Shown: positions 3,212 through 26,898, counted from the first letter of the stretch. The stretch: 64,000 bases of DNA from an uncultured virus (IMG/VR IMGVR_UViG_3300029787_000004) (IMGVR_UViG_3300029787_000004); one strand, 5' to 3'. The notes: generated by a model not told the origin, from the sequence alone. Translations and numbers: made by a program.

Positions 3212-3489
3212 ATGATGAGGAACTAAGAGCACAGATTGAAGTGCTAATTCGTGACGAAATTCAAGAGGTCATCAACTCTTATGTCGAAGAACAAAATAAA
3301 AGTTCTGGCGACAGTGGGATTGGTTTTATCACTCCTGAGGAGCAGAAGGAGATGACAGTGAAGATTAAGAATGCAGAGATTGATAAACTCATGAAAGAGT
3401 ATAAACAGATTAAGAAGGAAGAGAAATCAAATATCTCTGAGATCAAGAAACTGGGTCTTGTAGACAAATTTGGCAATCCACTTGACTAA
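3208..3489 (+). CDS. Hypothetical protein
   Basis: 93 aa, in operon context. Confidence 0.75.
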   Translation: MNDEELRAQIEVLIRDEIQEVINSYVEEQNKSSGDSGIGFITPEEQKEMTVKIKNAEIDKLMKEYKQIKKEEKSNISEIKKLGLVDKFGNPLD

Positions 3490-3510
3490 ATAAGAAATGA
3501 GGTCTATAAT
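3482..3510 (+). promoter_or_regulatory. Sigma70-type promoter overlapping a late-promoter-like CTAAATA
   Basis: TTGACT(3482)-N17-TATAAT(3505); predicted TSS ~3517 coincides with the riboswitch 5' end. Confidence 0.85.
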
Positions 3511-3516
3511 AGACCT

Positions 3517-3750
3517 GTCGTTCATCCCGCTACGGGCGGGACGCAAGTAAGTCGCGGAACGGAGTCGTTCATCCCATGATTGAATTTCTTTTATATTCAC
3601 AGCTCAGTTGTTCTGATGCCGATGCAATTATGTTTCGGATGAAGAATAAGAAAAATCTTAACGATCAAGTTAAGATTGAACTAATAGAAGCCGTAAAGGA
3701 ATCTACACCTGAGTGCTATCCATGGGACGCACACGATTGAAGGAACGGGA
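3517..3750 (+). ncRNA. Glutamine riboswitch-like RNA (glnA/Downstream-peptide family), double aptamer
   Basis: Two copies of CGTTCATCCC...GGGACGCA...GGAACGG; AGTA/GAA E-loop halves; lies upstream of a YRG-motif peptide gene. Confidence 0.8.
3576..3740 (+). CDS. 54-aa ORF inside the riboswitch P2 stem (MIEFLLYSQLSCSDADAIMFRMKNKKNLNDQVKIELIEAVKESTPECYPWDAHD)
   Basis: Manually translated open frame; start and end lie in conserved aptamer segments. Confidence 0.6.
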   Translation: MIEFLLYSQLSCSDADAIMFRMKNKKNLNDQVKIELIEAVKESTPECYPWDAHD

Positions 3751-3809
3751 AAACGGATCCATCGAAAGATGAGAAGGTTCAATTTCACCCAACTTTCAGG
3801 AGTAAACTC

Positions 3810-3956
3810 ATGACTACAACAATCACTTATAGAGGGCAGAAGTACGACAAAGATGCGTACAAAGCCAGTGTGTTGGCACAAGCAACACAACAACGCAACC
3901 ACAATCTAATGTATCGTGGTATTAAGGTCGAACGTAAGTTCGCATCGAAGAGCTGA
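3810..3956 (+). CDS. DUF4278-like peptide (48 aa)
   Basis: ITYRGQKY...LMYRGIKV double YRG motif; CAGGAG SD. Confidence 0.8.
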   Translation: MTTTITYRGQKYDKDAYKASVLAQATQQRNHNLMYRGIKVERKFASKS

Positions 3957-3961
3957 TTGTT

Positions 3962-3990
3962 AAGGGAGGTTTCATAACCTCCCTTTTTTT
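3962..3990 (+). terminator. Rho-independent terminator
   Basis: AAGGGAGGTT-TCAT-AACCTCCCTT plus T run. Confidence 0.9.
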
Positions 3991-4101
3991 GTAAATTATT
4001 TCGAGAACTTCATTAAGTTAGCATACGCTGACTAAATACTGATAGAATTGGAGAGCGAATGAACTAAAAGTCTTCGTAATCGTTCTATCAGGAGAATTAT
4101 T

Positions 4102-4538: not shown

Positions 4539-4685
4539 ATGAACGACAAGAAGGCAATCAAAAAAATTATTAAACGTGCTAAGAAACATCCTGAATGGTA
4601 TACACAGGAAGAAGTATTGTATGCTAAACTGATAAAAAAGACACTGAAAAAGAATGAATGCAAAACTGATCACAGCAACTCCTGA
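4539..4685 (+). CDS. Small basic hypothetical protein (MNDKKAIKKIIKRAKKHPEWY...)
   Basis: Manually translated 48-aa ORF. Confidence 0.6.
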   Translation: MNDKKAIKKIIKRAKKHPEWYTQEEVLYAKLIKKTLKKNECKTDHSNS

Positions 4686-5289
4686 TGCCGAAAAAACTAT
4701 GGCATACGTGGCACGTGTGTCGAATCCAAATAATCAGGAGAATGAAAATTATTCTGGTCTTTTAAAATATTGTATCAAGCATCAACACTGGTCTGTGTTC
4801 GAGCAAGCATACATGACATTGGAACTGAGCACGACCAGAGGACTGGCAGCCCAAGTGCTCCGGCACCGTTCATTTACATATCAGGAATTTTCACAACGCT
4901 ATGCTGATAGTTCCCTACTCGCGGAGGAGATCCCTCTACCTGAACTACGCCGCCAAGACACCAAGAATCGTCAGAATTCTATTGATGATATTGACCCGTT
5001 CACACGACAACAGTTCCAAATCAAAATACAAAAACATTTTGAAGAGGGAATGAATCTCTACAAAGAGATGCTTGATGCATCGATTGCAAAAGAGTGCGCT
5101 CGTTTTGTGCTTCCTTTGGCAGTCCCCACCAAAATCTATATGACAGGCTCATGTAGATCATGGATTCATTATATCTCTTTGCGAACTGCTAACGGTACAC
5201 AGCAGGAGCACATGGACCTTGCTAATGATTGTAAGAAAATCTTCATTGAGCAGTATCCTACTGTTGCAGAAGCATTAGAATGGAAGTAA
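4654..5289 (+). CDS. thyX: Flavin-dependent thymidylate synthase
   Basis: RHRSFTYQEFSQRY signature; HWSVFE. Confidence 0.97.
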   Translation: MNAKLITATPDAEKTMAYVARVSNPNNQENENYSGLLKYCIKHQHWSVFEQAYMTLELSTTRGLAAQVLRHRSFTYQEFSQRYADSSLLAEEIPLPELRRQDTKNRQNSIDDIDPFTRQQFQIKIQKHFEEGMNLYKEMLDASIAKECARFVLPLAVPTKIYMTGSCRSWIHYISLRTANGTQQEHMDLANDCKKIFIEQYPTVAEALEWK

Positions 5290-26596: not shown

Positions 26597-26814
26597 TTAC
26601 GCCTCAGACATACATCGATATGAATAAAGAGTTTGAAGAGGATAATATTCCTTTTCGAATCACTATTCCTACACAGGAAGCAATTGATGAGTGGCAGTCA
26701 AAACCACCAGCACATTATCAAACACCACCAGCAGTGGATATGGTTGCTGAGATGTGGGCAGAGCATAATAGAATAGAAGAAGAACGCAAACTACAACTCG
26801 AACTTGATTTATAG
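26593..26814 (+). CDS. Hypothetical protein
   Basis: GTGA overlap. Confidence 0.65.
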   Translation: MITPQTYIDMNKEFEEDNIPFRITIPTQEAIDEWQSKPPAHYQTPPAVDMVAEMWAEHNRIEEERKLQLELDL

Positions 26815-26898
26815 GGAGTGTGGCGGAATCGGTAGACGCACCAGACTTAAAATCTGTTGAGAATTAATCTCGTGGGGGTTCAAGTCCCCCTACTCCCA
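26814..26898 (+). tRNA. tRNA-Leu(TAA)
   Basis: Acceptor GGGAGTG/TACTCCC, D-loop GG, anticodon loop CTTAAAA, long variable arm, GGTTCAAGTCC T-arm; no encoded CCA. Confidence 0.95.

Follow-up and report, generated by a model that had tools for sequence, protein, structure and literature searches.

This analysis concerns a short transcription unit on a 64,000-nucleotide (nt) stretch of DNA from an uncultured virus (IMGVR_UViG_3300029787_000004). The whole stretch is referred to as the window, and all coordinates are positions within it. The unit, at 3482-3995, includes a promoter, a leader with two cores resembling glutamine riboswitches, an open reading frame (ORF) of 54 codons between the two halves of the leader, a DUF4278 gene and a terminator. 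A preliminary description had presented the leader as a phage-encoded, nested and two-fold symmetric glutamine riboswitch. A motif check on the window sequence recovered every element position it gave, and its structural reading holds: two nested cores of a glutamine-riboswitch relative have one P3 helix and one E-loop in common. The description was incomplete, as it overlooked the intact, conserved ORF between the two halves, along with the promoter, the expression platform and the DUF4278 gene that would be regulated. The mapped features are as follows.

3482..3510, plus strand: sigma-70-type promoter (TTGACT, 17 nt, TATAAT) with 11 of 12 consensus matches; start predicted at about 3516-3518
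3500..3516, no strand assigned: palindrome of 7 base pairs (bp), AGGTCTA-TAA-TAGACCT, with the -10 box at its centre and arms covarying in relatives
3519..3523, plus strand: 5' strand of outer P1, CGTTC (partner 3743-3747), paired and invariant in 52 of 52 rows
3525..3541, plus strand: P2 hairpin of the outer core, TCCCGC (3525-30), TACGG, GCGGGA (3536-41); 3 of 4 scored pairs altered on both sides
3542..3545, plus strand: linking strand CGCA of the outer core, invariant; from solved structures, C3544 is the predicted long-range partner of G3748
3546..3549, plus strand: 5' half of the E-loop, AGTA, aligning to AGUA of RF01739 and matching the E-loop of the solved aptamer
3550..3554, plus strand: 5' strand of P3, AGTCG (partner 3734-3738), with covariation; G3551-T3737 is a wobble pair
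3557..3570, plus strand: inner P1' hairpin GAACG-GAGT-CGTTC, with pair 3557:3570 GC in 46 rows and CG in 6; G3562 in its loop is the predicted long-range partner of C3730, and GGAG at 3561-64 a possible Shine-Dalgarno (SD) sequence of the enclosed ORF
3572..3578, plus strand: 5' strand of P2', TCCCATG (partner 3721-3727), including the ATG of the enclosed ORF; covaries in 53 ORF-size forms and is present in the unconstrained minimum free energy (MFE) fold
3576..3740, plus strand: enclosed ORF, 54 codons, phrog_504; stop TGA (3738-40) inside P3/E-loop
3721..3727, plus strand: 3' strand of P2', CATGGGA, formed by codons of the C-terminus of the enclosed ORF, with covariation
3728..3731, plus strand: linking strand CGCA of the inner core, invariant in relatives
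3734..3738, plus strand: 3' strand of P3, CGATT, with covariation
3739..3742, plus strand: 3' half of the E-loop, GAA(G), with GAA at 3739-41; doubles as part of the anti-SD strand 3737-3743
3743..3748, plus strand: 3' strand of outer P1, GAACG, plus G3748
3747..3789, plus strand: long-form spacer stem-loop, from the fold, with inner hairpin CATC-GAAA-GATG at 3760-3771
3793..3802, plus strand: CTTTCAG (3793-99), pairing with 3737-43 in the ligand-free fold, and the SD sequence AGGAG (3798-3802); from MFE and covariation
3810..3956, plus strand: DUF4278 gene, 48 amino acids (aa), IF17-like, phrog_5049 (26.2 bits against a cut-off of 25.3)
3962..3995, plus strand: intrinsic terminator, 10-bp stem and T run

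The leader is built from repeated motifs. The 10-mer CGTTCATCCC occurs twice in the window against 0.07 expected, a count reached in none of 100 shuffles, and GGGACGCA-N10-GGAACGG also occurs twice, with the same spacing, against 0.00 expected. This repetition at equal spacing indicates one unit in two copies, the second of which is interrupted after its first ten bases. As the preliminary description had stated, neither unit has a P3 of its own or a full E-loop. The outer core shows the features of RF01739, namely P1 CGUUC/GAACG followed by an unpaired A and the P2 hairpin, the E-loop AGUA/GAA at the base of P3, and a position in a DUF4278 leader. The inner core is devoid of an E-loop, with CA and CG occupying the places of AGUA and GAAG. 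The two-fold symmetry that had been proposed is thus a pseudo-symmetry: there are two cores, but the E-loop is found on the outer side only.

The sequence is identical in all four P1 strands, which makes two pairing registers possible. In the nested register, 3519-23 pairs with 3743-47 and 3557-61 with 3566-70, while in the side-by-side register 3519-23 pairs with 3557-61 and 3566-70 with 3743-47. A single alignment of 52 distinct sequences with the ORF, the window among them, served to score both. The nested register leaves 93.8% of cells paired, with 7 pairs altered on both sides, and its covariation is 0.134 versus 0.064 in shuffles, none of 500 reaching the observed value; controls with slid partners are paired in 32-54%. 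The pair 3557:3570, G:C in 46 of the 52 rows and C:G in the other 6, is of particular weight, as under the side-by-side register each of the two P1 helices has an unpaired position in the 6 swap rows. This compensatory swap favours nesting over two adjacent aptamers. Nesting is further favoured by the canonical outer connectivity it yields (P1-A-P2-CGN-AGUA-P3...P3-GAAG-P1, as in the solved aptamer), by its being free of any pseudoknot, and by the best RF01739 score running across the entire element in 4 of 13 compact relatives. On these comparative data, nesting is supported, and the element is a real, widespread and well-supported RNA structure.

The competing account of the same strands assumes two ordinary adjacent aptamers (3519-3561 and 3566-3747), each with its own P1 and acting independently as a "pseudo-cooperative" tandem. 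Unit 1 aligns to the Rfam models by itself, with 3519-23/3557-61 as P1, and unit 2 is aligned alone in 9 relatives at 30.9-35.1 bits. Unit-1-only rows exist in the glnA alignment of 2010 (PMC2864571), and 157 doublets have been counted as pseudo-cooperative (PMC9481103). Moreover, the equality of the P1 strands lets both registers form in most sequences. However, no unit has its own P3 or a complete E-loop, the inter-unit P3 covaries and would have to be a pseudoknot, each of the two P1 helices loses a pair in the 6 swap rows, a single expression platform is present, and the RF01739 score is highest over the whole element. Two independent aptamers are hence considered improbable.

Relatives of the locus are numerous. 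An 801-nt query around it matches 422 phage records, nearly all of them Synechococcus and Prochlorococcus myophages, whereas standard searches call phage riboswitches rare. Among the 40 matches listed of these 422, none has a riboswitch annotation at the locus, the annotated features being proteins, mostly hypothetical. Searching IMG/VR with the protein of the enclosed ORF gave 155 relatives, 80 of which were fetched and 78 parsed. The four P1-type strands, ACGCAAGTAAGTCG and TGGGACGCA..ACGACT.AAGGAACGG are near-invariant in 78 of the 80, and the first P2 hairpin in these loci is free to change its sequence while keeping its pairing. The two departing loci (L041 and L058) proved the informative ones. 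Two pattern scans each gave at least 120 loci, one fixing the 3' half (L081-L200) and one fixing the 5' half with the 3' half free (L321-L440). Among the 120 loci listed in the 5'-anchored scan, 5 were too short downstream and 7, of which 6 are evident chance matches, were without the inner hairpin; the other 108 carry a second CGTT(C/G) immediately after the first GGAACGG. Pairing was assessed on MAFFT alignments and by regular-expression parsing, since a covariance model could not bridge the ORF, and 88 distinct 5'-anchored sequences were parsed in this way. A scan of genome contigs for CGGAACGG-N1-6-CGTTCA returned chance matches, with the riboswitch core in none of the at least 120 loci listed, and the nearest virus record, a 24.7-kb fragment, has no RF01739 match. 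In assembled contigs of marine metatranscriptomes, which show presence only, relatives of the conserved cores occur, including one compact-form joint in run X20.

The helix P3 links the two units, with strands 180 nt apart in the window, and the preliminary description had made covariation of 3550-54/3734-38 a test of its reading. Such covariation was found. The first sets contain the variants AGTCG/CGACT, AGTTG/CAACT, AGTCA/TGACT and GGACGG/CCGACC, and in a class with eight positions (AGCCGACT/AGCCGACT) the last pair alternates between U:A and A:U. Positions 1, 4 and 5 covary. Among the 88 sequences, position 1 is AU in 77, GC in 9 and GU in 2, and position 5 is GC in 78, GU in 5, AU in 3, CG in 1 and GG in 1. 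A divergent nested element from the 5'-anchored scan (L362) has a wholly different 7-bp P3 (GAGCATA/TATGCTC) and a P2' unlike the others; if confirmed as a homologue, it would add strong independent covariation.

The long-range helix P2' also varies in a compensated manner. In 53 distinct ORF-size forms of the 5'-anchored scan, its position 4 is CG in 32, UA in 12, UG in 6 and AU in 3, and its position 5 is AU in 35, UA in 7, CG in 3 and UG in 3, with 5 mismatches. The ORF is absent from 21 of 192 parsed loci, and these compact forms have the same nested build. In them P2' is a plain hairpin such as TCCC-TTCG-GGGA, the whole nested element measures 85-95 nt, and the nested structure is 96.2% paired across 13 compact forms. 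As ORF-less forms keep the nested fold, the gene is best seen as an insertion into a loop of a pre-existing RNA fold. Compact natural forms of this size are also handy for binding and structural work. Within a few hundred bases of compact nested riboswitches, two of the pattern-scan loci (L177:1-71 and L131:84-155) contain a truncated manA RNA motif, scoring 54 bits against a cut-off of 55.2, and a tRNA.

Family membership was assessed with Rfam. At gathering thresholds, no match is obtained at the locus. At permissive thresholds the only specific matches are RF01739 (glnA, Glutamine-I; 25.1 bits, 3517-3565) and RF01704 (Downstream-peptide, Glutamine-II; 21.4 bits), which start at 3516/3517 and both take 3557-61 as closing strand. 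The curated gathering cut-offs are 35 and 33 bits, respectively, so the window element is a relative of these families that stays below their thresholds. For RF01704, the aligned 3' hairpin holds non-standard pairs, and the supported fold is nested instead of a pseudoknot. The picture is different for the 13 compact relatives: 3 reach 35.0-35.1 bits with unit 2 only, and 4 reach 39.6-43.6 bits with a match over the whole nested element, taken as the outer aptamer. The RF01739 score therefore peaks, above its cut-off, when the match runs from the first CGTTC to the last GAACG. The window element falls short of the Rfam cut-offs on account of the gene interrupting it.

Downstream of the aptamer lies a single expression platform. 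The DUF4278 family, which includes the glutamine synthetase inhibitor IF17, is found behind cyanobacterial glutamine riboswitches of both type 1 and type 2, and glutamine turns translation on in cyanobacterial DUF4278/IF17 leaders (PMC6212724). In the unconstrained MFE fold of the window sequence, P2, P1', P2' and an anti-SD helix are formed, the latter between 3737-43 and 3793-99 and overlapping the SD sequence AGGAG (3798-3802). Forcing the nested aptamer frees 3793-99. Pairing of the equivalent 6-bp anti-SD helix reaches 96.8% across 84 distinct relatives with the short spacer, where the position of the E-loop G/A is GC in 31, AU in 25, GU in 25 and other in 2. Across 147 distinct sequences, an E-loop A faces T in 56 of 56 cases and a G faces C in 56, T in 30 and other bases in 5; rows with the E-loop A are spread over several parts of the ORF tree. 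These comparative data support the expression platform, and we infer a translational ON switch for the IF17-like protein. Transcription attenuation was considered as well and rejected, there being no terminator between the aptamer and the DUF4278 gene.

The window is one of a minority of 13 distinct long-spacer sequences, in which the spacer forms a covarying stem-loop of its own. Its inner hairpin reads CATC/GATG, CTCG/CGAG, CAGC/GCTG or CTGC/GCAG in these relatives. The spacer sequence at 3753-3780 (ACGGATC-hairpin-AGAAGGTT) echoes ACGGA...GAAGG of the type-I core, and the spacer holds a second GAAGGTT, complementary to AACTTTC at 3791-97. Judging by these likenesses, it may represent a decayed third core or a second anti-SD strand.

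Several points weigh against the nested fold and the comparisons behind it. The outer P1 never varies (52 of 52 rows) and hence contributes no covariation, so that the choice of register depends on the 6 swap rows, the canonical connectivity and the whole-element Rfam matches. The swap rows are scattered on the ORF tree, yet the two changed bases are only 9-13 nt apart, and one swap event spread by recombination would look the same. Position 3 of P3 is a C.A or A.C mismatch in 48 of the 88 sequences and U:A in 37; from the sequences, it is a tolerated weak spot of the helix. The half that was fixed in each pattern scan, 3' in L081-L200 and 5' in L321-L440, is invariant by construction, and since the sequences share descent, the shuffle controls overstate significance. 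The window scores under the curated cut-offs of both glutamine riboswitch families, and a covariance model (R1) built on the 13 compact forms splits it into 3517-3589 (23.3 bits) and 3660-3750 (17 bits). Finally, the nested fold has a free energy of -79.7 kcal/mol compared to -86.7 kcal/mol for the MFE fold. Such a penalty of 7 kcal/mol is expected of a switch, but is no proof of one.

The nucleotides of the ligand sites can be compared with solved structures. In the type-I and type-II aptamers, whose glutamine pockets are virtually identical, glutamine bonds to the first P1 C:G pair, the second pair's C and the linking-strand G, and the site is capped by a long-range pair between the next base of the linking strand and the base after GAACG (PMC6698751). 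The outer core keeps these contacts as C3519:G3747, G3520:C3746, CGC 3542-44 and G3748, and the inner core as C3566:G3561, G3567:C3560, CGC 3728-30 and G3562. The long-range partners C3544/G3748 and C3730/G3562 are present and invariant, so covariation cannot probe their pairing. The junction-adjacent pair, C5:G36 in the solved structure, is outside the positions conserved to >97% (PMC6698751), and the crystallised type-I construct itself reads CGUUG...CAACG (PMC5393176). The natural swap at 3557:3570 hits exactly this less conserved pair. Glutamine binding is thus expected by homology. Under nesting, both repeats contribute a P1 strand to every pocket, making the two predicted sites interdependent by construction. 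Set against a glycine-like dual aptamer, two cores with full contact nucleotides and one anti-SD platform are observed, the inner core being a putative ligand site. Since the ligand-contact nucleotides known from the solved structures are retained in both cores, the cooperative two-site sensor of host nitrogen put forward in the preliminary description is plausible.

A different reading accepts the fold and assumes that one or both cores no longer bind glutamine, the leader serving instead to couple translation of the enclosed ORF to that of DUF4278. Of 168 loci with the ORF, 166 have its stop within the anti-SD strand, and a ribosome ending at 3738-40 would melt the helix. The inner core without an E-loop, the E-loop G replaced by A in 56 of 147 relatives and the scores under the Rfam cut-off all agree with a loss of binding. 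Against this stand the ligand-contact and linking-strand nucleotides, which are invariant in both cores even at synonymous codon positions, as well as the compact forms, which retain the same cores in the absence of any ORF and in some cases exceed the Rfam cut-off. A purely coupling leader is accordingly rated as unlikely.

The enclosed ORF is a gene in its own right. It matches phrog_504, a family of unknown function, end to end (E 3e-26), and 168 loci carry an intact version with 49-69 codons, corresponding to 132 distinct proteins. Its stop is at a constant place relative to AAGGAACGG in the 166 loci mentioned above. Column entropy ranks third > first > second codon position (1.25/1.03/0.72 and 1.24/0.92/0.46), which is a coding pattern. 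The protein family conserves two cysteines and a C-terminal W-D-A fully or almost fully; the hydrophobic N-terminus ends in a conserved Cys (position 12), and the second Cys is located seven residues before the end. The AlphaFold model is a plain two-helix hairpin (predicted local distance difference test score, pLDDT, 76.6). Taken with the cysteines, it may be a small disulfide- or metal-linked helical hairpin.

The codons of W-D-A coincide with the RNA motif TGGGACGCA, and TGG GAC GCA is without variation, synonymous sites included, in the 78 protein-found loci parsed. One could suppose that the 3' motif is conserved merely as the C-terminus of a protein (WDAHD*), its likeness to an aptamer being accidental, as 3721-3740 is indeed coding. 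However, the invariant block extends beyond the stop codon (AAGGAACGG), synonymous sites are frozen within it while the codons just upstream vary, the same sequence is present in ORF-less forms, and the pairing partners covary. This explanation is hardly credible and is refuted as far as sequence data allow.

The RNA also hints at how the enclosed ORF is translated. P1' loops starting with GAG, which place GGAG 10-11 nt upstream of the ATG, are found in 53 of 85 distinct ORF-bearing forms versus none of 17 compact forms, and in the 5'-anchored set in 27 of 53 versus none of 35. The sequences thus hint at the P1' loop as the ribosome-binding site of the ORF. The association is a lead and not proof, because related sequences inherit such features by descent. 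The Gs of this GGAG include the ligand-contact G3561 and the long-range partner G3562. In three further loci (L018 at 250-470, L107 and L082), the first P2 likewise encloses a whole ORF, of a different family, upstream of a CGCAAGTA core. This ORF encodes about 65-70 aa (...PYGWHMSCERF...); the 5' strand (CGTTCATCTCATG) holds its ATG, and its stop codon falls within the 3' strand (..TATGAGACGCA). With ORFs in both the first P2 and P2', one leader can carry two genes within two aptamer helices.

Taken together, the likely account is that 3482-3995 is a unit governed by a glnA/type-1 riboswitch of two nested, strand-swapped cores acting as the switch described here. The unit would be a small early-type transcription unit of a T4-like cyanophage whose RNA opens with the riboswitch. 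Its outer core would be canonical, with P1 3519-23/3743-47, A3524, P2 3525-41, CGC 3542-44, the E-loop 3546-49/3739-41 and P3. Instead of ending in a capping loop, P3 would open into a second three-way junction in which the core is repeated in permuted order, with the P1' hairpin 3557-70, A3571, P2' 3572-78/3721-27 and CGC 3728-30. P2' would close over 142 nt coding for the 54-aa protein. Each predicted glutamine site would mix strands of both repeats, so both could form only jointly. In the absence of glutamine, the end of P3, the 3' half of the E-loop and the first G of P1 (3737-43) would pair with 3793-99 and cover the start of the SD sequence. Glutamine would stabilise P1, P3 and the E-loop, free the SD sequence of the DUF4278 gene and thereby presumably turn on translation of the IF17-like protein. 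More tentatively, folding of the inner core could bury both the ATG of the enclosed ORF, in P2', and its GGAG, in the P1' loop. In that case the RNA could not sense and have the enclosed ORF translated at the same time, and the two small proteins may be reciprocally controlled. A ribosome terminating at the ORF stop would open the anti-SD helix, as the stop lies in the anti-SD strand. From its sequence, the phage leader probably sets two small proteins by the nitrogen state of the host.

Glutamine riboswitches, their two types, their association with DUF4278 and their occurrence in some phages are already known (PMC9004378, PMC9964418, PMC6212724); a survey in 2017 counted only two glutamine aptamers in cyanophage genomes (PMC5473149). 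Judged from its sequence, the element is a new architecture within this known riboswitch class. It shares with Glutamine-I (RF01739), as represented by the Synechocystis gifB/IF17 leader (PMC6212724) and the crystallised Synechococcus aptamer (Ren et al. 2015; PMC5393176), P1 CGUUC/GAACG, the unpaired A, P2, the CGN linking strand, the AGUA/GAA E-loop, the start of P3 (AG...CU), the DUF4278 leader position and a likely translational ON logic via an anti-SD strand that overlaps the aptamer on its 3' side. It differs in that P3 is closed by a second aptamer-like three-way junction and not by a loop, in that one helix of this junction is a long-range pairing around a protein-coding gene, and in its type-II flavour (CGC linking strand with GAACGG) and score below the family cut-off. 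With Glutamine-II (RF01704, PMC6698751) it shares CGUUCA, CGCA and GGAACGG, a site made of a helix and a third strand with long-range C:G closure, and an inner core without an E-loop, whereas the H-type pseudoknot and the P2 hairpin around GGAACGG are absent and the fold is fully nested. The type-II crystal form is a strand-exchanged dimer with each site built from two molecules (PMC6698751), and the nested fold resembles an intramolecular version of it.

Catalogued tandem glutamine riboswitches (PMC2864571, PMC9481103) are probably the same objects in compact form. The 2010 glnA alignment holds unit-1-only rows ending in ...AAGUA AGU..CA CGGAACGGAGC (PMC2864571), so the compact form has probably been seen before and taken as two aptamers. 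In the 2010 supplement, no contiguous el2-loop-el3 strings were found, and a shorter string matched one unit-1-only row (PMC2864571). A review from 2022 lists 157 doublets and 4 triplets, classed as pseudo-cooperative sets of separate riboswitches with several platforms (PMC9481103), whereas the data presented here favour one interlocked domain with one platform. Tandem glycine riboswitches and ydaO/c-di-AMP riboswitches (PMC9481103, PMC5393176) likewise have two homologous sites in one domain on one platform, an arrangement that can give a steep response. Their folds and ligands are unrelated, and their sites touch by tertiary contacts, whereas the cores in the window share a helix and swap P1 strands. 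No description of a nested fold or of a gene inside an aptamer was found in the portions covered of the glutamine-riboswitch, cyanophage and DUF4278 literature, which stand without Ames & Breaker 2011, a work that may bear on this point.

If nesting is true, tandem glutamine riboswitches shift from independent units to a single two-site domain. A natural aptamer helix formed around a translated gene would directly couple metabolite sensing to translation, and viruses abundant in the ocean would possess a means of their own to monitor host nitrogen status, linked to a glutamine synthetase inhibitor homologue. As a tentative extension, each "tandem" glutamine riboswitch in cyanophages, and perhaps also in marine cyanobacteria, would be a single strand-swapped two-site domain with both repeats contributing to each glutamine pocket, and in most cyanomyophages one or both of its P2 helices would be stretched around whole genes. 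Such leaders would integrate glutamine and ribosome traffic and set two or three small proteins reciprocally, high glutamine switching the enclosed ORF off and the IF17-like protein on. Equally speculative within this extension is that genes in stretched P2 helices would have their start codon in the helix and their stop codon in the aptamer.

Upstream of the leader, the promoter TTGACT...TATAAT is also found 7-9 nt ahead of CGTTC in relatives, and we infer a transcription start at the first base of the aptamer, about 3516-3518. The arms of the palindrome at 3500-3516 covary around a constant TATAAT (GGTCTA/TAGACC, GTGTTA/TAACAC, GAGTC/GACTC). A minus-strand terminator-like site is also flagged at this palindrome, which could act as an operator or, in read-through RNA, form a hairpin hiding the promoter-proximal leader. 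An NtcA-type box (GTA-N8-TAC) is absent near the promoter; the nearest one is at 3693 inside the ORF, and the count across the window is at chance. About 700 nt downstream of the unit, a 211-aa ORF (4654-5289) matches DNA annotated as thymidylate synthase in related cyanophages. Further away, at 26814-26898, the window contains a tRNA gene with a long variable arm (57.4 bits to RF00005), whose anticodon loop CUUAAAA we read as Leu-UAA.

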